Shown here one piece after another: positions 1,032 through 30,104 of a stretch of DNA of 32,000 nt. The notes beneath the pieces are model-generated. The model was given only the letters and a program-made list of their open reading frames with translations, did no database searches and was not told the origin of the DNA. Numbering within the stretch: position 1 is the stretch's first letter; every line of letters begins with the position of its first letter. The translations under genes and the position numbers were made by a program. Source of the DNA: Candidatus Woesearchaeota archaeon (GTDB lineage Archaea; Nanobdellota; Nanobdellia; Pacearchaeales; GW2011-AR1); assembly GCA_964497435.1 (NCBI GenBank), contig CAZCCD010000001.1:29914-61913 (forward strand), given 5' to 3'.

Positions 1032-1104
1032 TCGAATCAGTCAGAGGCAACGAAAAGATTCGGCGAGGTTGCTGGAGTTGTGAAGAACCCGCTGGAGGTT
1101 CTCA
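1032..1104 (-). repeat. hairpin-repeat element, copy A, abutting the stop codon of the 1017-aa gene
   Basis: Stem-loop agaacc-CGCTGGA-ggttct at 1084-1102 touches the stop codon at 1102-1104. It is preceded by GAGGTTGCTGGAGTTGTGA. A second stem pairs gcaac (1047-1051) with gttgc (1068-1072). The same module recurs at 4698-4735 and 16866-16903. Confidence 0.6.
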
Positions 1105-4100
1105 TCTCCATGCTCTTGCCTGCACCTCTGTATCCCATGTGAAAGGAATTCCTGTTATTTCTATAGTATTTATTGTTAAATCCTGGTCTGTGAATTTTGT
1201 CTCTATTTTTCCATTAAGATTTAAATCCAAACCTTTCAATAAATCATACGTTGATATTTGAATAGCATCATTATTATTGAAAAGTGCAAAACTCGGAATT
1301 GATGAGTTATAGTAACATCTATTACTCCCTGTGTAGTTTTTAGGCACTGAAATACTTCCAACAGTGTTATCTTCAAATTCTATATCCCACAAACATCCAT
1401 CTGCTGATATTACTACAGGAGTATATGATGATATATTTTTCACAATTGAGTAAACAACCTTGTCATAAATAGAACCGCCTGAAGAATTTGAAGGACCTGC
1501 TCCTGTAGAAACTATTACTGAATTGTCGCCTTTTTTTAATTTACTTCCTGGAATATTTACTATATAAGGGTCACCTAGCTCAAAATAACTGTTACTGTTA
1601 TATTCAGCGAGATTAAAAACATCTTCCCACACACCAGAACTGTTAATTTGGAGCATGTCTGTCCATCTTGGTCCAGAGTAAGAAACAACGCCTGCTTCAT
1701 AAGGCTCTGCATCAAGAGGAACGAAAAAGTTTCCTTGAGAGATATTGTTGTTGAATATCGCTGTTTCTGTTGTTATTGAAACTCCATTTGGAATGACTTT
1801 GTCATAATCCATCGATATATAAGAGTCAGAATAAAGCAATGTGTAGATTCCTTTTCCAATAACTGTCTGTTCAATGAACGCTGTACTGATAATATCTTGT
1901 GTTATCTGCTGATATATACTAACCAATTCCCCAACATTTCCAAAGTAAAAATTACCCTGGCCACATGATGATATGTCCTCTAGCGTATCTGTGTCTGCAC
2001 CATTTCCAAATCCAACAGCGTGGACAGTTATGTTGTGTTTATTTTTTGCATCGCATGCTGCTTGGATTGCATGATCTTGTGAATCATCGGTTGTATCCCC
2101 ATCTTGATCATAGTCAACAACAGGATCTAAACCACAAGCCCTGTTTGCCTGTCCGTCAGTCATTACAATAGCAACCCTGCTTCTATTTTCTGGAGGCAAG
2201 GCATTGCATATTTCATCAGTTAAAAATATACTGACATTACCTGCTGTATATCCAACGTTAGAATTCTCTGTTAAAAAAGACACTCTTGCTATATTTGTTC
2301 TTGTTGAATAAACAGAAAGATCATTTCCCTCTAAAACATCATCTACATATAAATCATAAACATTTGAGCCAGGAAAAATTTCAACTTTTATTTTATAATT
2401 TGTATTCAATGTATAAGAATATACTTGAGCATCATTATTCCTAATCCATCCATCATACATTTTAATTATTATATAATTTTGAAAATCACTAAATCCTGAA
2501 TTTGCTCCTTCTACATAAACTACAATTCTACCAGTTCCAGAATCATGCCTTACCAAAAATTCAACAGATATTTTATCTTCTTGTGGTGCAAAGTAATGTC
2601 TCATTACAGGATTTTGAGACGATAAACGGGAGATATTTACTGCCTTGTTTCCTTCTAATCCAGGAGAAATTATCCTTATTCTACCATTTCCTTCTGTAAC
2701 ACTCCATCTTGTTGGATTGCTTCCAATTGTTTGGTCATTAAAATTATCGTTAAATATATTTTTATCAAAACAATTTATTGCCTTAATTATTCCGCAGCAT
2801 ATACATGTATATCCTCCAGCATTCCAGGTATTGACTTCATTTATTAATGATGCACTATTATTAGATAATGCATGGAAATCACTTTTTTCAGCCCATGTCC
2901 TGTATCCTTCTAATCCAACATTATTTCCAGAAAAATTTAAAATTCCATTGATTAATTCTATATTAGCATTTTTTGCATCTGTTATTTTTTGTCCGCCCAT
3001 GCTTCCTGATAAATCAGTCACTGAAATCACATCGACTTTTATGTCTTTTCCAAGGCCAGAAACATTTTCTATGCCAAGTCTTATAGGAATATTTTTTTCA
3101 TTCATTGAAGAGTAATCTAAAATAGAAGATAATGTTGGATTATCTATTGTAACACTCAAATTAGCCCCAGAGCTGTTTCCAGAATAAATGCTTTTATTTC
3201 CTATTGTCATAAATATGTCAAAGCTGCTGTTGTAATGAAGGAAAACTTCCATAGAATTTAGTGTTCCAGGAACATAAATGCTATCATAAATATTTATCAG
3301 GCCTTTAATTCCTGGGAATTTTTTCTTGTAATATGAAGAAAGATTGCTGACATCATTGTAAACAGCTTTTAAATAACCTCCAGCTATATACAAATTCCCA
3401 TTTGTTGATTTAAACTCAACAGTGTTTTTACCTATGGCAAACATGCTTAAATTTGAATTTAAATCTATTTTATATGGAACATTTGATATTGGAGAATGAC
3501 TGCTTGCATATATATCATTTATATATAAATCAAAATCCCTTGAAAAAACTCCTTCTATATTCGCACTTATTACTTCTCCTTCAATTTCTGCAGTTATATT
3601 TCCATCTCCAATATAACCCCCAAAGTAAAAATACTCTATTTTATTTTCTGCGGTTAAGAAAGCCCTGGAAGAAAATCCTGTTGCAGAGCTCCCATTTATA
3701 ATCCCGCTTATTATTTGTCTTGATGTTAAAACTGTTAATGCATTACTAAAACTCGTATTTCCTGTTGAAGCTATTAATACATCATTGAAATAAAGCCCTG
3801 TGTTGTCTCTAAGAGCAAGGCTGTCTAAGATGTTTTGAGCGAGTTGATTTGCAAGAGGATTAGAGCTTGCATAAAACTCCCCTATCTGCTCAAGCACAGA
3901 CTGGTTTAATTTTTTTATATCTCCATTGGCTATTAACTGTTTAACGTAACTATTATTAATTTCCCCAATTTGTAAATCTGAAAGAACAGATAAGAGGTCT
4001 TCATGAACTCTTGAGTCATAGCTAACTTGAGTTTGACTTGGCTTAATAAAAAGAACAACCCCTATAATTAAGAGCAAGGCTATTAAAGCATCTAAACTAA

Positions 4101-4155
4101 AGAAATACCCTTTCTTATTTTTGGTTTTGAAGCTATTTTTATTTTTTATTCCCAT
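1102..4155 (-). CDS. large pilin-anchored vWA (MIDAS) domain protein with inserted LamG/concanavalin-like beta-sandwich; putative filament-associated adhesin (TadG/PilY1-like logic)
   Basis: 1017 aa. N-terminus ...NKKG|YFFSLDALIALLLIIGVVLFI is pilin-like. vWA elements: DVISVTDLSGSMGG (DxSxS), GGYTCICCGI (MIDAS Thr), VAIVMTDGQAN (MIDAS Asp) and ITVHAVGFG. A ~200-aa beta-rich insert (NPTRWSVTEGNGRIRII...GNVSIF) lies between the TCICCGI and MTDG segments. There is an acidic DYDQDGDTTDD loop. The start overlaps the upstream gene by 10 nt. Confidence 0.75.
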   Translation of the reverse strand: MGIKNKNSFKTKNKKGYFFSLDALIALLLIIGVVLFIKPSQTQVSYDSRVHEDLLSVLSDLQIGEINNSYVKQLIANGDIKKLNQSVLEQIGEFYASSNPLANQLAQNILDSLALRDNTGLYFNDVLIASTGNTSFSNALTVLTSRQIISGIINGSSATGFSSRAFLTAENKIEYFYFGGYIGDGNITAEIEGEVISANIEGVFSRDFDLYINDIYASSHSPISNVPYKIDLNSNLSMFAIGKNTVEFKSTNGNLYIAGGYLKAVYNDVSNLSSYYKKKFPGIKGLINIYDSIYVPGTLNSMEVFLHYNSSFDIFMTIGNKSIYSGNSSGANLSVTIDNPTLSSILDYSSMNEKNIPIRLGIENVSGLGKDIKVDVISVTDLSGSMGGQKITDAKNANIELINGILNFSGNNVGLEGYRTWAEKSDFHALSNNSASLINEVNTWNAGGYTCICCGIIKAINCFDKNIFNDNFNDQTIGSNPTRWSVTEGNGRIRIISPGLEGNKAVNISRLSSQNPVMRHYFAPQEDKISVEFLVRHDSGTGRIVVYVEGANSGFSDFQNYIIIKMYDGWIRNNDAQVYSYTLNTNYKIKVEIFPGSNVYDLYVDDVLEGNDLSVYSTRTNIARVSFLTENSNVGYTAGNVSIFLTDEICNALPPENRSRVAIVMTDGQANRACGLDPVVDYDQDGDTTDDSQDHAIQAACDAKNKHNITVHAVGFGNGADTDTLEDISSCGQGNFYFGNVGELVSIYQQITQDIISTAFIEQTVIGKGIYTLLYSDSYISMDYDKVIPNGVSITTETAIFNNNISQGNFFVPLDAEPYEAGVVSYSGPRWTDMLQINSSGVWEDVFNLAEYNSNSYFELGDPYIVNIPGSKLKKGDNSVIVSTGAGPSNSSGGSIYDKVVYSIVKNISSYTPVVISADGCLWDIEFEDNTVGSISVPKNYTGSNRCYYNSSIPSFALFNNNDAIQISTYDLLKGLDLNLNGKIETKFTDQDLTINTIEITGIPFTWDTEVQARAWR

Positions 4156-4613
4156 ATGTAAAAATCAAATCTTGATGGTTTATTTTTGTAGATTGTTATT
4201 CCTGTTACTTGTATTAAGTTTTCTGTATTGCTTGAATTAACCATTCCTACATAACTCGCTGGTAGGCCATTTATCTCTAAATTTTCCATGACAAAATAAA
4301 AATTTCTAGTAACTCCTATTATTGTTTTTTCTGCGTTATAATTTGCCTGAAAAAAATCAAGCTTTGATTGATTAACCCTTCCTTCTGTTAATATTCCTGC
4401 ATCTCCCTCACTCAATATCTGTTCTACAGCAACATTTCCCTCGTAAAATAATTCATCAAGATGTTTTTGTGATTGAGAAGAATAATTAATTGCATAAATA
4501 TAGAGAGTTATTATTCCTGCCATGAAGATAACCCCTGCTATTATAATATCAAGCCCCCATCCCTGCCCATTTTTGTCTTTTTTTATGTTACACATTTTTT
4601 TATTTTTATTCAT
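4146..4613 (-). CDS. pilin-like membrane-anchored protein (shortened start)
   Basis: The track ORF 4146..4793 is trimmed to the ATG at 4613-4611: MNKNKKMCNIKKDKNGQGWGLDIIIAGVIFMAGIITLYIY... This is a basic N-terminus, then G|Q, then a hydrophobic helix. The longer version would translate a non-coding tandem repeat and overlap the upstream gene by 62 nt. Confidence 0.55.
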   Translation of the reverse strand: MNKNKKMCNIKKDKNGQGWGLDIIIAGVIFMAGIITLYIYAINYSSQSQKHLDELFYEGNVAVEQILSEGDAGILTEGRVNQSKLDFFQANYNAEKTIIGVTRNFYFVMENLEINGLPASYVGMVNSSNTENLIQVTGITIYKNKPSRFDFYIWE

Positions 4614-4735
4614 GGTTGCTGGATGCATTAAAACTGGTAGAGGTTTCCTATCTCTGGTTGCTGGATGCATTAAAACTGGTAGAGGTTTCCTATCTCTGGT
4701 TGCTGGATGCATAGAAACCCGCTGGAGGTTTCTAT
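4614..4735 (-). repeat. tandem array of the hairpin-repeat element (two identical 42-bp units plus one variant unit), copies B1-B3
   Basis: Units at 4614-4655 and 4656-4697 are identical (ggttgctggatgcattaaaactggtagaggtttcctatctct). The third unit at 4698-4735 keeps ggttgctggatgcat and carries a perfect 9-bp stem, atagaaacc-CGCTGGA-ggtttctat (4711-4735). That stem contains the TAG stop (4732-4734) of the upstream pilin gene. Confidence 0.85.
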
Positions 4736-5145
4736 TGATTAAGGTAAACTGTGTCATTTTCTTTTTTGATTGAGTTTGAACCTTTCTGTACATTACCTAT
4801 AATTTCTGGAACCCTATAAGCCATGCCATGTCTATCTGTGGAAACATATACAAGGCCCGATGAAATTTCTATATTATAATCATTTCCAAGAACTTTTAAA
4901 GGAACTTGGAATATTCTATTATAGCCGTTTGTTGCTCCTGAAGCTAAGCCAAGTTCGCTTTGAACATCTAGTGCAATGTTTTGAAGCAATATTCTTTCTT
5001 TTTCCTTCTCTTTTTCTAATTGATTCTCTTTTATAATTACGAAAAATGTTACAAATGCAAATAAAACAAATCCAAATATTATCACAAATTCAATAGCACT
5101 CTGACCTCGTGAAGATCTTTGATCTGATCTTTTTATTTTAAGCAT
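4732..5145 (-). CDS. type IV pilin-like protein, class III signal peptide (first gene of the - strand operon; candidate major pilin)
   Basis: 137 aa. The N-terminus MLKIKRSDQRSSRG|QSAIEFVIIFGFVLFAFVTFFVII matches the archaeal QxSxEF-type prepilin N-terminus. Confidence 0.75.
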   Translation of the reverse strand: MLKIKRSDQRSSRGQSAIEFVIIFGFVLFAFVTFFVIIKENQLEKEKEKERILLQNIALDVQSELGLASGATNGYNRIFQVPLKVLGNDYNIEISSGLVYVSTDRHGMAYRVPEIIGNVQKGSNSIKKENDTVYLNQ

Positions 5146-5806: not shown

Positions 5807-6030
5807 CTTATCTCTATTCAAGATGAGATTTTTAAAAGATTTATTTAATCTATATATTATACTTTTTATCAAAAACAATACATATGAGATATCTCTCTAA
5901 TTCTATCTCTTACTTTAACAGTTACCCAAGCTTTGTTTAAACTGAATATAACATAAAATTTATCAACATTAAGTTATTTAGTTTTGTGTATTATCAACCT
6001 TATTTTAATATTCGCGAAAGCGACAATTTT

Positions 6031-7890
6031 TTAAAAATTCCAGGTTTCAAGCAGTGTACCTGCAAATTCTTCTCCAGACGAAAGTATTACTATAGGATAA
6101 ATCTCGACCTTTATTATTGGTGCTACTAATCCAGATGTTGTTAAATCAAAATCATATTTAGTTACCTGCAATATTTCAGGGGCTGGTTTGTCAACAACAG
6201 CTGTATTTGATGAAGAATCAAAGAATACAAATCTTAAAAAATTGTAATTGTGTACAGATTGTGTCTTTTGTGTAAATTGATTTGCGATTGTTTGGTAGAT
6301 GTTTGTTAAATCTGTTACATCTCCATAAGGAGAAAAGGAGAAGTTTCCGCCTCCACAATTTGCAATTTCTTGCATAGTTACTTTATCTACGCCAGCACCT
6401 ACACCTATAGCATGGATTGTTAAATTTTGTATACTTGCATTTGCATCGCATGCAGCCTTAATTGCATCATCCCTACCTGTATCAGGAATTCCGTCGTTAT
6501 TTAAATCACCAGTAACACCCTGTAATGCACACCCTGTAACTGAATCTCCATCACTCATAACAATCATTACCCTTTGAGGGTTAGTTGATGGTGTTAGTTT
6601 ACTTGTGGCGTCATTAATTCCACAGCACATACAAGAAGAAGGTGTGTAGGCTTCCCATGAATCAATTTTGGAATTTAAAGTGCCTGAACCAGAATTATCG
6701 ACTAAATTATTTGAAGAAGTCGTGTCTATAGCATTTCTAAAGATTGAAAATCCAACCCTATTATTTGCCCCTGTAAAAATAGAACTAATCAATGCTTTGT
6801 TTGCAGTTTGTGCCGGCCTTATTTTATCTATCATTATTGAGGTTAAGACTGGCTGCGTATTACAGGTAGACTGACAACTGTTTATTGATGCTGTGGAAAC
6901 ACCTCCACACTCTCCAAGTGGCGGTGATGGTTCAGGAAGAGGGTTTGAATGAGGATCATTAATACCATCTATTAAAGTATTTTTGTGATGCCCCTGGCCA
7001 CCAACACTATTATTTACATCAATATACATGCTACTCACACTTACACTGGCAAGAGATGTATCAACACTACCTAATTCAATTTCAGAAAGCCACATACTTT
7101 CTGTATAATTAATATTTGGGTTGCTCAATTTTATCCACCCCATATTTTCCTGCTGCCAAAGTCTAATGCTTGTTGTTGAGACACTAGAAAAAGTGTAACT
7201 TGAATTTGATACATTATCATTAACAATATTGTGTGCGGCAATTGTTTGATAAGAACTTCCATCCCAGTATTGTATGTCAATTTGTTGAGAAACCATATAG
7301 TTTCCTCTGTAATTATTCCATCCCCACCAAATTGTCACATTATCAATATTTTGTGGAGTCGAAAAATCAAGTGTAGCCCAATGAGGTCCTTGATCATTAA
7401 AACCCCAATCACATGTCGTGAATTCTCCAGTGCAACTACCCCACGTGTAAGACATAAAATGTCTTCTCCAGATAGCGTTACCAGCAGAATTTAGTGAGGC
7501 TGTGCAACAAGTTTGATTAACAAAATTACATACAGACATACTTTCAGATAAATCCACAACACTCATTACATCGACTTGAGGACTCTGTCCTTGAATTTCT
7601 ATGCTTCCTTGAGTTATTATTTTCCCTGTTCTTTTTTGAATTGTTATACTCAAATTTAAATTATTGTTTTGATCGACTTCGGCATTAGTTATGTCAATAT
7701 TTTCTGCTAAAAGATATGCCTTTATAGCTGATTTTTCTGATTCTTTTTCTATAAATACTCTTACTAATGTCCAGATTATGGCTATGGCAACAATTGTAAG
7801 CAAGATTAATAATAATGTAGTTATTATTGTTGAAAGTCCTTTTTTGTTTTCTAATAAACAAATGTAATTAACTTTGCCCTCTTTTTTCAT
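6031..7890 (-). CDS. pilin-anchored adhesin paralogue 1: vWA/MIDAS domain interrupted by a discoidin (F5/8 type C)-like domain
   Basis: 619 aa. The N-terminus NKKG|LSTIITTLLLILLTIVAIAIIW is an archaellin/pilin-type N-terminus. MIDAS motif DVMSVVDLSESM. Insert: ...HWATLDFSTPQNIDNVTIWWGWNNYRGNYMVSQQIDIQYWDGSSYQTI...SIRLWQQ...WLSEIEL (discoidin-like pattern). The rest of the vWA domain follows: SSCMCCGIND, VMIVMSDGDS, LTIHAIGVG. There is a DLNNDGIPDTGRDD Ca-loop-like motif. Confidence 0.8.
   Translation of the reverse strand: MKKEGKVNYICLLENKKGLSTIITTLLLILLTIVAIAIIWTLVRVFIEKESEKSAIKAYLLAENIDITNAEVDQNNNLNLSITIQKRTGKIITQGSIEIQGQSPQVDVMSVVDLSESMSVCNFVNQTCCTASLNSAGNAIWRRHFMSYTWGSCTGEFTTCDWGFNDQGPHWATLDFSTPQNIDNVTIWWGWNNYRGNYMVSQQIDIQYWDGSSYQTIAAHNIVNDNVSNSSYTFSSVSTTSIRLWQQENMGWIKLSNPNINYTESMWLSEIELGSVDTSLASVSVSSMYIDVNNSVGGQGHHKNTLIDGINDPHSNPLPEPSPPLGECGGVSTASINSCQSTCNTQPVLTSIMIDKIRPAQTANKALISSIFTGANNRVGFSIFRNAIDTTSSNNLVDNSGSGTLNSKIDSWEAYTPSSCMCCGINDATSKLTPSTNPQRVMIVMSDGDSVTGCALQGVTGDLNNDGIPDTGRDDAIKAACDANASIQNLTIHAIGVGAGVDKVTMQEIANCGGGNFSFSPYGDVTDLTNIYQTIANQFTQKTQSVHNYNFLRFVFFDSSSNTAVVDKPAPEILQVTKYDFDLTTSGLVAPIIKVEIYPIVILSSGEEFAGTLLETWNF
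6089..6246 (-). repeat. 158-bp block 100% identical to 9419-9576 (3' coding end of the adhesin paralogues)
   Basis: Base-by-base comparison by eye. The flanks diverge immediately on both sides. The block encodes the shared C-terminal segment YNFLRFVFFDSSSNTAVVDKPAPEILQVTKYDFDLTTSGLVAPIIKVEIYPIV. Confidence 0.9.
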
Positions 7891-9351: not shown

Positions 9352-11037
9352 TTATTCTTCTTCAAATTCCCAGGTTTCAAGCAACGGTCCTGCAACTTCT
9401 CTTCCTGATGAGAGTATCACTATAGGATAAATCTCGACCTTTATTATTGGTGCTACTAATCCAGATGTTGTTAAATCAAAATCATATTTAGTTACCTGCA
9501 ATATTTCAGGGGCTGGTTTGTCAACAACAGCTGTATTTGATGAAGAATCAAAGAATACAAATCTTAAAAAATTGTATTTTTGTATTGTTTTTGATTGCTG
9601 TATTGATTGGCCTGCTATTGTTGTGTAGATGTTTGTTAAATTATCTATGCTTCCATTAGATGCGTAATAAGTTCCATTTCCGCAGTTTGCGATGGCTTGT
9701 AGAGTCGCAGCATCAGCAGTAGGTTCAATACCAACACTATGGATTGTTAAATTCTGTATACTTGCATTACAAGCTGCATTAATGGCCTGTTGCGCAGGAG
9801 TTCCAGCCCCACCACAACCAAAATTTGCCAACCCATCACTCATAACAATCATTACTTTTTGTTTGTTTAACACTGAGTTATTTCCAAATTCAGCCGAGGC
9901 ATTGTTTATCCCACAACAAATGCAAGTTGCTCCCCAAGCCTCCCAACTATCTATTTTTGAGACTAGAATTCCAGAATTTGTAACTAAACCACTTGAATTA
10001 GAAGAATCTAAAGAACCCCTATATGCTGATAAACCAACTTTATTATTACTCCCAGTGAAAATTTCACTAACTAAGGCTTTATTTGCATTTATAAGAGGGT
10101 TAATTCTATCAATAAGATTCCCTCCACAGATAGGTTCACAATTGTTTAATGATGTTTTAGGTACTTCAGTACAATCGTAAGGAGGAGTAGTTGTTGCGTT
10201 GTTTAACTGGATTTCACTAATCCACATTATGTTTGGATAACTGGGAGGTCCCATTCCTGATTGTTGTACAAACCTTAAAGCTTGTGTTGAAAATTGTGGA
10301 AGAATGATTGTAGAATTTGATATGTTTTGAGCTCCGCCGCTGTTGAAAGTGACTAATGGCTGGAATACATATCCTGCATCTGCGTATTGAATCTCAACCT
10401 GTTGTGAAGTCATATATCTTGAAGTAGTTGCGTTCCAACCCCACCAAATTGTTATATTACTTACAGTTACTTGACCTACTATAAAGTCCATCGTAATCCT
10501 ATGGGGGAAAGGGCCTGTACTAGAACTTGCCCAGGAATTTGTCGTATTAATTATTCCGTCGACTAAATCACTTTCACTCCCAATGCTTGTGCTCCTAACA
10601 GTAACTTGTGCAAAAGGATCCATGCCTTCATTATACAAAAAAGCGCAACAATCTAAAGTTATATCTTCACAAACAGCCATGCTTCCGCTTAAATCCACAA
10701 CACTCATTACATCGACTTGAGGACTCTGGCCTTGTATCTCTATACTTCCTTCAGTTATTATTTTCCCTGTTTTCTTTTGGAGTGTTATGCTTAGACTTAG
10801 ATTATTGCTTTGGTTTATTTCGTCATCTATCACTTCAATGTTTTCACCTATTAAAGACGCTTTTATCGCCGATATTTCAGAATCCCTTTCTAAAATCAAT
10901 CTGACAATAATCCATATAATTGCAATTAAGACTATAGCAATTAAAATAATTAAAAGTGTTGTTATTATTGTTGAAAGGCCTTTTTTCTTTCTACAAATTG
11001 GAGAAACAACTAAACTAACACCTCTTTCTTTTTCCAT
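9352..11037 (-). CDS. pilin-anchored adhesin paralogue 2: vWA/MIDAS domain interrupted by a discoidin (F5/8 type C)-like domain
   Basis: 561 aa. N-terminus RKKKG|LSTIITTLLIILIAIVLIAIIW. MIDAS motif DVMSVVDLSGSM. Insert: HRITMDFIVGQVTVSNITIWWGWNATTSRYMTSQQVEIQY...ALRFVQQ...WISEIQL. Then ATCICCGINN, VMIVMSDGLAN, LTIHSVGIE. The C-terminus is identical to paralogue 1. Confidence 0.8.
   Translation of the reverse strand: MEKERGVSLVVSPICRKKKGLSTIITTLLIILIAIVLIAIIWIIVRLILERDSEISAIKASLIGENIEVIDDEINQSNNLSLSITLQKKTGKIITEGSIEIQGQSPQVDVMSVVDLSGSMAVCEDITLDCCAFLYNEGMDPFAQVTVRSTSIGSESDLVDGIINTTNSWASSSTGPFPHRITMDFIVGQVTVSNITIWWGWNATTSRYMTSQQVEIQYADAGYVFQPLVTFNSGGAQNISNSTIILPQFSTQALRFVQQSGMGPPSYPNIMWISEIQLNNATTTPPYDCTEVPKTSLNNCEPICGGNLIDRINPLINANKALVSEIFTGSNNKVGLSAYRGSLDSSNSSGLVTNSGILVSKIDSWEAWGATCICCGINNASAEFGNNSVLNKQKVMIVMSDGLANFGCGGAGTPAQQAINAACNASIQNLTIHSVGIEPTADAATLQAIANCGNGTYYASNGSIDNLTNIYTTIAGQSIQQSKTIQKYNFLRFVFFDSSSNTAVVDKPAPEILQVTKYDFDLTTSGLVAPIIKVEIYPIVILSSGREVAGPLLETWEFEEE
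9419..9576 (-). repeat. 158-bp block 100% identical to 6089-6246
   Basis: See 6089-6246. A second identical run of 39 bp (10690-10728 = 7549-7587) covers the MIDAS-encoding segment. Confidence 0.9.
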
Positions 11038-15847: not shown

Positions 15848-16543
15848 ATGGCAGAAAAAAGAGTCGCATCTGGAATTCCTGGATTTGACAGACTAATTGG
15901 AGGTGGTTTTAATGCCAACTCAATTAACATAATTTCAGGAGGAAGTGGAAGCGGAAAAACAATTTTCTCATTACAGTTTTTACTTGAGGGTTTAAAAAAA
16001 GGAGAAAAAGTTCTTTATGTTACATTTGAAGAGAAAAAAGAAGATGTTTACGACAATGTTAAAAAATTTGGCTGGAATTTAGAAAAGGCGGAGGCAACAG
16101 GAAAATTTATCTTTCTTGAGTACTCTCCAGAGAAAGTTAAGATGATGTTGGACGAAGGAGGAGGAGCAATAGAATCAACTGTCTTAAAAAATCAGATTTC
16201 TAGGCTTGTTATAGACAGTGTCACAAGTTTTACCTTACTTTTTGATGATGAGCAATCTAGAAGACAGGCAGTTCTTGGCCTGGTTGATATTATAAGAAAG
16301 TGGAATTGTACAACCTTACTTACTGTGCAACATGATCCTCTTGAAAAGAGCAGTGAAGGCCTATCTTTTATAGAATTCGAAGTTGATGGAATAATTCTTC
16401 TTTATTATCCTAGCACAGGAGGAAGGAGAAGAAGATATCTTGAAGTCTTGAAGATGAGAGGCACAGAACATTCTAAAGACATGCATGTTTTTAAAATTGA
16501 CAGGGGAATTAAAGTCGGTCCTGTTACTTCAATTAGGAGATGA
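15848..16543 (+). CDS. KaiC-like/RecA-superfamily ATPase (FlaH-like accessory ATPase)
   Basis: 231 aa. SGIPGFDRLIGGG, then Walker A GGSGSGKT and Walker B RLVIDS. It is the last gene of the machinery operon. Confidence 0.8.
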   Translation: MAEKRVASGIPGFDRLIGGGFNANSINIISGGSGSGKTIFSLQFLLEGLKKGEKVLYVTFEEKKEDVYDNVKKFGWNLEKAEATGKFIFLEYSPEKVKMMLDEGGGAIESTVLKNQISRLVIDSVTSFTLLFDDEQSRRQAVLGLVDIIRKWNCTTLLTVQHDPLEKSSEGLSFIEFEVDGIILLYYPSTGGRRRRYLEVLKMRGTEHSKDMHVFKIDRGIKVGPVTSIRR

Positions 16544-16706: not shown

Positions 16707-16713
16707 AAAAAAA
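16707..16713 (-). terminator. oligo-T terminator of tRNA-Gly
   Basis: Seven consecutive T on the - strand directly follow discriminator base A73 (16714). Confidence 0.5.
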
Positions 16714-17000
16714 TGCGCGGACCGGGAGTTGAACCCGGCTCACCTCGTGTTTGCTTTTTGTTGTTAATTTATTAATTGGAGCTTTGATTCCTTACATTGT
16801 CCTTCTCTATAAAAGGAGGGGTTGTGCGAGCAATTTCATGAGACAAATCGCTCGGAACTCACAACGAGTGAGGTTGCGAGTTAGGAAGAACCGTAGGTTC
16901 TCTATCAGCCTTGAGCACTATCTTAAGGGAGATGGTGTGAGGAAGAACCGTAGGTTCTTCTCATTGGCAACGAGATATTCTACCGATAAACTACCCGCGC
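16714..17000 (-). tRNA. tRNA-Gly(GCC) interrupted by a ~215-nt intervening sequence at a non-canonical site after the anticodon arm (approx. 16744-16958)
   Basis: 5' part on the - strand (17000-16959): GCGCGGG-TA-GTTT-ATCGGTA-GAAT-A-TCTCG-TTGCCAA-TGAGA. 3' part (16743-16714): GTGAG-CCGGG-TTCAACT-CCCGG-TCCGCGC-A. All four stems pair and the anticodon loop is intact. The junction is placed only to within a few nt. Confidence 0.7.
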
Positions 17001-17023
17001 ATAAAAAAACTAGAATGAATCAT

Positions 17024-29674: not shown

Positions 29675-29769
29675 TATTATTTATGTTTACATCATTTTAT
29701 AAAAATTTATCTACTCTAGAATATACTAAACAAAAACCCTTAAAAAGCAGTTAATTCTTTTTATTTTAT

Positions 29770-29914
29770 CTCCTCATAGCTCAATGGCTTAGAGCGCCTG
29801 GCTGTAGTTAACTGTAATGCTAAGATAAATGTTTCAGAAGATATTAAATAAAGCTCGATAAATAAAAGGTTCAACAGAACCCGGGATATCCCAGTTCGAT
29901 TCTGGGTGGGGAGA
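29770..29914 (+). tRNA. tRNA-Tyr(GTA) with 72-nt canonical (37/38) intron, 29808-29879
   Basis: CTCCTCA-TA-GCTC-AATGGCTTA-GAGC-G-CCTGG-CTGTAG|intron|C-CCGGG-ATAT-CCCAG-TTCGATT-CTGGG-TGGGGAG-A. The C1-G72 pair and A73 are the archaeal/eukaryal tRNA-Tyr identity set. Loop CTGT pairs with intron ACAG, flanked by 3-nt bulges AGT and AAC, giving a BHB core. Confidence 0.85.
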
Positions 29915-30104
29915 TGTTAATGATGATTCGGACATTTCAAGTGCAGATATTATTTATTTGATTAATTATGTATTTAAGGGAGGACCTGCTCCCTATTTAT
30001 TACTGTTGGGAGATTTCAATGGAGATGGAGTGATAACTTCGTCAGATATAATACGCCTTGTTAACTTTGTATTTAAAGGTGAGTCTGAGCTGTCTTGTGG
30101 CTGA
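29913..30104 (+). pseudogene. orphan dockerin-type C-terminal fragment (gene relic, no start codon)
   Basis: Hand translation: [63 protein letters not shown]. It has two DxNxDGxIxxxD-type Ca-binding repeats typical of dockerin. The frame is open only from 29862, inside the tRNA-Tyr gene. It has no ATG or GTG, and the only in-frame TTG would give 49 aa. Confidence 0.6.

Follow-up and report, generated by a model that had tools for sequence, protein, structure and literature searches.

What is a short hairpin repeat doing at the stop codons of archaeal pilin genes? The question is raised by a stretch of 32,000 nucleotides from a Candidatus Woesearchaeota genome (contig CAZCCD010000001.1; hereafter the window), an archaeal sequence with a G+C content of 32% whose left half carries a type IV pilus locus. 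A preliminary description of the window had noted hairpins on the stop codons of pilin-like genes and offered two options, an expression signal of the pilin operon or a small mobile structured element. The features it described are all present in the sequence, the coordinates of one copy (copy A below) being 2-3 nt off. In the reading preferred here, to which a probability of about 0.5 can be given, the hairpins are copies of a dispersed archaeal repeat, a non-autonomous miniature element that spreads by copy-and-paste and survives only where it is harmless.

The window holds six copies of the element, all on the minus strand: two intact ones (A and B3), two decayed tandem units (B1 and B2) and two relics (H1 and H2) in the intron of a tRNA-Gly gene (coordinates in Table 1). 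A covariance model for which only copies from other genomes were used, one row being equal to copy A, recovers all six at 58, 54, 17, 17, 14 and 7 bits, the last being weak. One strand of the window contains the exact 10-mer GGTTGCTGGA four times, against an expectation of about 0.06 in 32 kb by simple arithmetic. On the minus strand, copy A reads AUGAGAACC-UCCAGCG-GGUUCUUCA-CAAC-UCCAGCAACC (its 5' arm is also written TGAGAACC) and copy B3 reads AUAGAAACC-UCCAGCG-GGUUUCUAU-GCA-UCCAGCAACC. The TGA stop (1102-1104) of the 1017-aa VWA pilin open reading frame (ORF) lies inside the 5' arm of copy A, and the TAG stop (4732-4734) of the upstream pilin-like ORF lies inside that of copy B3. Both regions are predicted to fold as hairpins (z = -2.0 for copy A; z = -2.5 and about -12 kcal/mol for B3).

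Stretches of both intact copies recur unchanged elsewhere. Copy A is identical from GAACC to the end of its tail to a locus of another assembly (L100; L numbers denote the loci of the family scan), and T-loop introns of two Aenigmatarchaeota assemblies (L018, L109) contain copies that match B3 exactly over its 38-nt core. Directly 3' of copy A lies a second hairpin module, and copy A together with 40 flanking nucleotides recurs upstream of dnaG in L117, a different gene context; core and module share 82% identity over 74 nt with that unit, and the module recurs in L117 only. In B1 and B2 the tail is intact while the loop and 3' arm are degenerate, and the last tail of the array runs directly into the ATG (4613-4611) of the pilin-like gene that follows. 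Tandem Repeats Finder gives a period of 42, with 2.4 copies and 100% matches, at 4613-4712. As the period equals 14 codons, ORFs stay open through the whole array on both strands (4146-4793, minus; 4522-4773, plus), with the translations (MHPATRDRKPLPVL)n and (VAGCIKTGRGFLSL)n respectively, and gene prediction may lengthen the pilin gene or report a spurious ORF there.

A scan of one genome per GTDB species with the strict pattern CCTCCAGCGGG-N8-20-TCCAGCAACC gave at least 116 loci and did find further copies: at least 105 archaeal loci in at least 73 assemblies. The archaeal labels are Woesearchaeota, Pacearchaeota, Nanoarchaeota, Aenigmatarchaeota, Iainarchaeum, Parvarchaeota, Altiarchaeota, DHVE2, Thermoplasmata, Bathyarchaeia and Hydrothermarchaeota, and among the matches listed the assemblies belong mostly to DPANN groups. 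Eleven listed loci in GC-rich bacteria were set aside, being inside ORFs, devoid of hairpin arms and roughly as numerous as chance predicts.

The element is about 38-45 bp long and can be described in two senses, PO (the reading on the minus strand of the window) and OO (the complementary strand). In the PO sense, a stem of about 9 bp encloses a 7-nt loop, UCCAGCG, that does not vary; the inner pairs of the stem are AACC/GGUU in every copy, and the outer ones change in a compensated manner. A spacer of 3-5 nt leads from the hairpin to the tail UCCAGCAACC, which is likewise invariant and usually followed by A (61%). Two direct TCCAGC repeats have a near-constant spacing of about 19-20 bp. In an alignment of 44 distinct archaeal copies, the A (usually AA) before CC and the TT after GGG are invariant even though they lie outside the search pattern. 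The arms are paired in 92.6% of cells of this alignment and 54 cells are changed on both sides, values that none of 500 shuffles reach (0/500); the hairpin is kept by compensatory changes. Arm variants form subfamilies that are common to distant lineages. Tandem arrays also occur elsewhere in the family, with periods of 32-50 bp. Among these are the spacer-less arrays of a DHVE2 assembly (L113 6390-6510, L082 2686-2820, L027, L051), where the standard unit alternates with a variant unit GGGAACC-ACCAGCG-GGTTCCC-ATTCCC-TCCTGCAACC, the variant loop reading GCTGGTGG on the other strand.

The preliminary description could not match the repeat to a known class, and this still holds. No Rfam 15 family matches the window elements at gathering thresholds, and at E values up to 1 the only matches are three spurious ones to eukaryotic long non-coding RNAs elsewhere in the window. 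Searches of the literature by sequence and by concept likewise found no description of the element.

Several observations point to dispersal. In the genome CAYOFN01, an array of two units, about 82 bp in all, is joined to three different flanks on its right-hand side, once before a membrane-protein gene (L080) and twice against 3' fragments of two different tRNAs (L050, L085); L097 holds this array too, with its distal end altered. Elsewhere two identical copies occupy two different introns of one tRNA (L066). The conserved ribosomal-protein operon carries the element at a junction that differs from genome to genome, the same junction being empty in others: it is found at the uL4 junction in L005 and not in L030, at the uS19 junction in L014 and not in L005, L012 and L030, and at the uL23 junction in L030 and not in L005 and L014. 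An RFC junction is similarly occupied in L056 and empty in L033 and L081. The option of a small mobile structured element is therefore supported by a dispersed multi-copy family, by identical copies at unrelated loci of one genome, by tandem arrays, by presence and absence at orthologous junctions and by a lineage-specific tRNA-Gly intron, described below.

Outside tRNA genes, the copies are found mainly next to start codons. On the OO strand, GGTTGCTGGA...CCCGCTGGAGG-N3-9-ATG is seen in 46 of 105 unique contexts (44%) among the matches listed, so that GGAGG lies at Shine-Dalgarno distance, and an ORF of at least 60 aa follows in 33 of the 46. The genes behind OO copies include those for uL4, uS3, uS19, uL23, uL11, SRP54, ArgRS, PheRS beta, RFC, SMC, DnaG, RNase HII and Hjc. 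The stop codon of a co-oriented upstream gene lies 2-11 nt before the element in nine copies, and a TATA-like box precedes GGTTGC by about 25-35 nt in several promoter-proximal copies. The claim that the hairpins sit exactly on stop codons is true of both intact window copies and of a minority of the family, an ORF stop lying within 12 nt upstream on the same strand in only 6 of the 122 copies listed; most often the element adjoins a start codon of the opposite strand. A comparison of the two sides of the element for a duplicated start codon gave a prefix-match distribution no different from that of a control with swapped flanks, and the AT before GGTTGC mostly mirrors the tendency of A to follow the tail on the other strand. 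Many OO leaders (e.g., L009, L014, L033, L042, L103) also contain an upstream ORF of 12-20 codons, often MVAG..., which starts from AT|GGTTGC and terminates within the 3' arm or shares bases with the main ATG (ATGA, TAATG). As a designed feature this ORF was discarded, since it is indistinguishable from composition effects.

The other main habitat is tRNA genes, in or beside which at least 30 copies lie in both orientations (roughly 18 in one sense against 20 in the other by hand count among the matches listed). The earlier suggestion that the elements act at the RNA level, co-oriented with their host transcripts, does not generalise, as both orientations occur inside tRNA genes. In canonical 37/38 introns of PO sense the hairpin usually starts 1-2 nt past the 5' splice site (L040, L053, L065, L081, L083, L066), and in the OO-sense introns of L036 and L084 it ends 2 nt before the 3' splice site. 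For the tRNA-borne copies in the window tRNA-Gly, L040, L053, L065, L081 and L083, removal of the intron restores a canonical tRNA; copies A and B1-B3 are not in tRNAs.

The window itself provides an example of an intron probably enlarged by such copies. Its tRNA-Gly(GCC) gene has a 216-nt intron at position 37/38 (16964 down to 16749) and was missed by ARAGORN at default settings and by Rfam, neither of which reported any RNA gene in the window. The predicted fold of the precursor (-92.8 kcal/mol, z = -5.8) includes a 10-bp hairpin, CGAGCGAUUU/AAAUUGCUCG. Relic H2 has a loop shortened from 7 to 3 nt and a tail that aligns with that of copy A except for a 2-nt deletion. H1, a few nucleotides past the 5' splice site, has the same GAACC-UAC-GGUUC hairpin and a decayed tail, its low score marking it as a weak relic; an H1-type GAACCTACGGTTC hairpin adjoins an intact element in L092. 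Near-identical tRNA-Gly(GCC) exons elsewhere have either an unrelated 61-nt intron (L121, L122) or none (L118, L120, L123), and the 216-nt intron with its two relics is thus lineage-specific. A GC-rich module of about 45 nt (GTTTTCCGAGCC..GAGCTCCC), placed precisely on the 3' border of the loop (TCCAGCG|) in L067 (2452-2536), L115 (5-88) and L074 (about 3750, archaeon 354-166), has TTCCGAGC in common with this intron; it lies within the arms of the element in L067 and L115, and the 3' arm is absent in L074.

Six copies in T-loops may show how such introns begin. In these, the T-loop segment, TTCGAA or a close variant, precedes the hairpin by 1-3 nt, and behind the tail stands a near-duplicate of it; in L094, for instance, TGGGTTCGAAA is matched by TGGGCTCGAAA. 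As TTCGAA is a palindrome, a direct duplicate after the insert can pair with the first copy in RNA, and the paired duplicates would form a 4-bp helix with two 3-nt bulges, the bulge-helix-bulge motif of archaeal splicing, so that insertion at this site would create its own intron. The predicted fold of L109, re-read by hand, consists of the T-stem, an AUU bulge, the 4-bp helix UUCG/CGAA, an AAA bulge and directly afterwards the element hairpin. Cuts after the second nucleotide of each bulge would restore a 7-nt T-loop and place the intron at position 59/60, a known non-canonical position of tRNA introns (PMC4090602). Brute-force in-silico splicing of the T-loop copies with ARAGORN gave many permissive solutions and is ambiguous, and no bulge-helix-bulge motif is evident in the predicted folds of copies A and B3. 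Duplications are also seen at other tRNAs, where copies in antisense orientation are followed by a duplicated tRNA 3' end of 20-23 nt (L063, L085, L045, L101, L089); between the duplicated ends there are just 65-130 bp, with no gene.

Among eukaryotes, algae and fungi have introner elements, DNA transposons that give rise to spliceosomal introns. By analogy, the present repeat could tentatively be regarded as an archaeal introner, a DNA element that would create bulge-helix-bulge tRNA introns on insertion into the palindromic T-loop, a proposal that we consider possible but doubtful. As with introners (a topic that appears in PMC3879977), a repeat would become an intron on insertion and the target duplication would supply part of the splice signal, here the duplicated palindromic TTCGAA as the central helix of the predicted motif. 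Unlike introners, the element is only 40 nt long, would depend on a protein endonuclease and not on the spliceosome, and has no known transposase; that the target duplication is a product of insertion is a supposition in this case.

Taken together, the preferred reading would run as follows. The element would multiply by copy-and-paste through a putative enzyme, and in compact genomes it would be retained only at harmless sites, of which three kinds fit the data. In tRNA introns it would be spliced out; in the OO orientation directly before a start codon, its GGAGG could serve as a Shine-Dalgarno sequence; and in the PO orientation directly behind an ORF, as in the window, the TGA or TAG of its arm would terminate the gene. 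Copies A and B3 would then have inserted into two intercistronic spacers of the pilus operon and be intact still; B1 and B2 would be a decayed unit that was recently duplicated, and H1 and H2 relics that inflated the tRNA-Gly intron. The hairpins of A and B3 will be present in the pilus operon transcript; nothing links them specifically to pilin expression, and any effect on the stability or processing of the pilin transcript would be secondary.

A number of results weigh against this account. No transposase, integrase or reverse-transcriptase family recurs among 1062 ORFs of 105 loci (about 8 kb around each copy), where clustering of neighbours gave housekeeping genes only, and the strict pattern scan of viral contigs gave 0 matches. 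The flank duplications are irregular in length (8-12 nt in T-loops, 20-23 nt at tRNA 3' ends) and most copies have none above background. No filled-versus-empty pair from closely related strains was obtained, and the boundaries of the element are approximate. The loop and tail are identical across phyla, and the element recurs with different arms before the SMC gene (3 of 4 divergent genomes) and before the uL11 gene (3 of 3 genomes, two of them close relatives). This invariance and recurrence suggest selection on single copies, insertion hot-spots or concerted evolution, and for this reason two functional models are kept as rivals.

The first of these models, which seems rather unlikely, takes the element as a selected cis-acting mRNA leader or translation-initiation cassette. 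The spacer on the GGUUGC strand would offer GGAGG at the boundary of loop and arm 3-9 nt before the AUG, the hairpin would adjust how readily ribosomes gain access or would link translation to the upstream gene, and the window copies would be reversed and either non-functional or differently functioning. Such a leader would account for the 46 of 105 listed contexts with an ATG 3-9 nt past GGAGG, for downstream genes that are real housekeeping genes, for the co-oriented upstream stop 2-11 nt before the tail in nine copies, for the TATA-like boxes about 25-35 nt before GGTTGC in several promoter-proximal copies and for the recurrence at SMC and uL11 in divergent genomes with compensated arms and unchanged loop and tail. 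It is also favoured by L017 and L024, whose elements are 100% identical between diverged flanks. Left unexplained are the tRNA intron copies in both orientations, the copies by duplicated tRNA 3' ends, the spacer-less tandem arrays and the reversed copies behind the stop codons of the window. Moreover, the downstream genes form no coherent regulon, and the invariant GGUUGCUGGA and CGCU bases have no role in plain Shine-Dalgarno function. The other functional model is a two-sense RNA network in which PO RNAs from tRNA introns and 3' untranslated regions would kiss the loops of GGUUGC-sense leaders of many housekeeping mRNAs, UCCAGCG pairing with CGCUGGA loops and the tail with GGUUGCUGGA, and so mask or expose the Shine-Dalgarno sequence. 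The invariant loop and tail are exactly complementary to these partners, the leader loop including the Shine-Dalgarno sequence and the partner of the tail lying in the 5' segment of the leader. Archaea release tRNA introns, often in circularised form, and if the model were true it would couple tRNA production to the translation of ribosomal-protein, synthetase and replication genes. An invariant loop and single-stranded tail with freely varying stems would be explained, and both senses would be transcribed in at least some genomes, such as JACOYL01 with a PO copy in a tRNA-Gln intron (L083) and the other sense in the uS19 leader (L014). Yet this network must be called very improbable: the two senses are about equally common in and near tRNAs, intron and leaders have the same sense in some genomes (L036 with L103, L084 with L023), and the intron copies of the window tRNA-Gly have lost the loop.

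Recognition at the DNA level is improbable too; the use of either orientation in tRNA contexts speaks for it. Here a conserved archaeal protein (a recombinase, nucleoid protein or replication factor) would bind the direct TCCAGC repeats, whose near-constant spacing is about two helical turns, or an extruded cruciform, and the duplicated tRNA 3' ends at five loci do resemble integrase att sites. Against it, those ends are just 65-130 bp apart, no recombinase gene is enriched nearby among the ORFs surveyed, a fixed position relative to ATG and splice sites would be unexpected, and the covariation of the hairpin points to a folded single strand. Least probable of all is the first option of the preliminary description, an intercistronic processing, stability or attenuation signal specific to the operon that would set the ratio of pilin products. 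It draws on the position of both intact copies, in intercistronic spacers of one co-directional pilus operon with hairpins starting at stop codons, and on the moderate stability of these hairpins. It is not supported, as the element is specific neither to pilin operons nor to stop codons, being found also before ribosomal-protein, aminoacyl-tRNA-synthetase, SMC, RFC and DnaG genes and in tRNAs in at least 73 other archaeal assemblies. B1 and B2 are decayed, the covariance model scan found no copy at the paralogous pilin genes 6031-7890 and 9352-11037, and inspection of the coding strand directly 3' of copy A and of the B array found no U-run of the kind seen in archaeal terminators. A reading of the hairpins as transcription terminators was rejected on the same ground.

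Among known repeats, bacterial repetitive extragenic palindromic (REP) sequences, bacterial interspersed mosaic elements (BIMEs) and small miniature inverted-repeat transposable elements (MITEs) such as the Correia elements of Neisseria are short intergenic hairpin repeats, often clustered, which can alter mRNA stability, termination or translation in the genes beside them. REP elements are particular to a species and linked to a gene for a RAYT transposase. The present family likewise consists of short, intergenic, clustered hairpin repeats; it differs from REP elements in a loop and tail that are identical across phyla, in tRNA introns as a main habitat and in a neighbourhood where no RAYT or IS200/IS605 gene is enriched. 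Within about 8 kb around each of the 105 loci, no RAYT (TnpA-REP) gene flanked by repeats was seen. A MITE or an element derived from an insertion sequence was rejected, as the inverted arms are internal with the 10-nt conserved tail outside them, terminal inverted repeats are lacking, duplications of 8-23 nt accompany some copies only and are not of fixed length, and no transposase or integrase recurs in the neighbourhood. The 42-bp units are identical and directly adjacent without spacers, unlike a CRISPR array. A C/D box small RNA would have RUGAUGA/CUGA boxes, whereas the invariant columns are AACC, UCCAGCG, GGUU and UCCAGCAACC. The arms misfit the core consensus of integron attC sites (RYYYAAC/GTTRRRY), which moreover are at least about 55 nt long against about 40 nt here, and no integrase is enriched nearby. 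An origin-recognition box was also considered and dropped.

Two further precedents are archaeal. The transposed bulge-helix-bulge tRNA introns of Thermoproteales are thought to move at the DNA level by a mechanism that is unknown (Fujishima et al. 2010, as summarised in PMC4090602); in contrast to these, the present family has many members away from tRNAs as well (at the starts and ends of genes and in tandem arrays), spans many phyla, mostly of DPANN, and has a defined architecture of hairpin, loop and tail. In Caldiarchaeum subterraneum, a tRNA gene is disrupted by an integrating 1.8-kb element that encodes a recombinase (PMC3293823). Both cases have duplicated tRNA fragments beside inserted DNA and link intron gain to a mobile element, but the duplicated ends described here enclose far less DNA and no gene. 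Set beside known dispersed hairpin repeats and mobile tRNA introns, the family is unusual in its spread across phyla and in the link between introns and gene-start spacers.

For the gain of introns at new positions in archaeal tRNA genes, reviews give the mechanism as unknown (PMC4090602). A sequence family whose members form tRNA introns and also stand alone between genes would offer a concrete candidate for the agent, and the element may reveal the origin of some archaeal tRNA introns; a route is suggested by the T-loop copies, in which duplication of TTCGAA around the insert would make the splice motif. Furthermore, judged from its sequence contexts, the element seems to supply dozens of essential genes in the genome-reduced DPANN archaea with a ready-made Shine-Dalgarno sequence and may thereby shape translation signals in these organisms. 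There are practical consequences as well, since tRNA genes with such introns are hidden from default tRNA finders. Many copies lie within about 100 nt of contig ends (L011, L013, L026, L029, L039, L050, L067, L072, L074, L079), and the repeat thus appears to break metagenome assemblies.

Table 1. Element copies and accompanying features of the window.
Feature	Position	Strand	Details
Copy A, intact	1067-1104	minus	54.4 bits, covariance model; plus-strand parts GGTTGCTGGA 1067-1076, GTTG 1077-1080, TGAAGAACC 1081-1089, CGCTGGA 1090-1096, GGTTCTCA 1097-1104
Second module, directly 3' of copy A	1027-1066	minus	CGAAUC...GAUUCG hairpin, then AAUUA (predicted fold)
Copies B1 and B2, identical 42-bp decayed units	4614-4697	minus	17 bits each, E ~2e-4
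Copy B3, intact	4698-4735	minus	58.3 bits, covariance model; plus-strand parts GGTTGCTGGA 4698-4707, TGC 4708-4710, ATAGAAACC 4711-4719, CGCTGGA 4720-4726, GGTTTCTAT 4727-4735
tRNA-Gly(GCC) gene	16713-17001	minus	ARAGORN with introns allowed
Intron copy H2	16872-16909	minus	GAGAACC-UAC-GGUUCUU and tail relic CUCGCAACC; 14.2 bits, E 0.0018
Intron copy H1	16934-16966	minus	6.8 bits, E about 1
VWA-domain genes	1102-4155, 6031-7890, 9352-11037	minus	class III signal-peptide-like N-termini
Two short pilin-like ORFs	4146-4613, 4732-5145	minus	
T2SSE ATPase and two T2SSF membrane proteins		plus	

Some copies lie within coding sequence. In the Nanoarchaeota assembly WY1.bin114 (L020, 410-442, plus strand), an in-frame copy in a putative RNA methyltransferase of 382 aa (UPF0020/RMKL-like domain) amounts to 36 nt or 12 added residues, NLQRVLPSSSNQ, at residues 45-56; a UUUAAU 6 nt before its hairpin could pair with an AUUAAA 2 nt after its tail. 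In L096, L098 (the 3' end of a GatA-like gene) and L100, the upstream ORF continues into the element, each time in the NLQRV... frame, and so has a C-terminus and stop other than its native ones; in these copies the 5' arm is absent or degenerate.

Elsewhere in the window, a tRNA-Tyr(GUA) gene at 29769-29915 (plus strand; ARAGORN with introns allowed) has a 72-nt intron ending in a GGTTC-AACA-GAACC hairpin, which is the arm sequence of the element in reverse order. At the pilus locus, a duplication of about 3.1-3.3 kb comprises two paralogous genes with VWA and pilin N-terminal regions (6028-7890 and 9352-11037, minus strand) and their upstream regions, with segments 73-88% identical. Directly after the pilus ATPase and membrane-protein genes lies a gene for a KaiC-like ATPase (15848-16543, plus strand; Pfam PF06745, E 9e-60).

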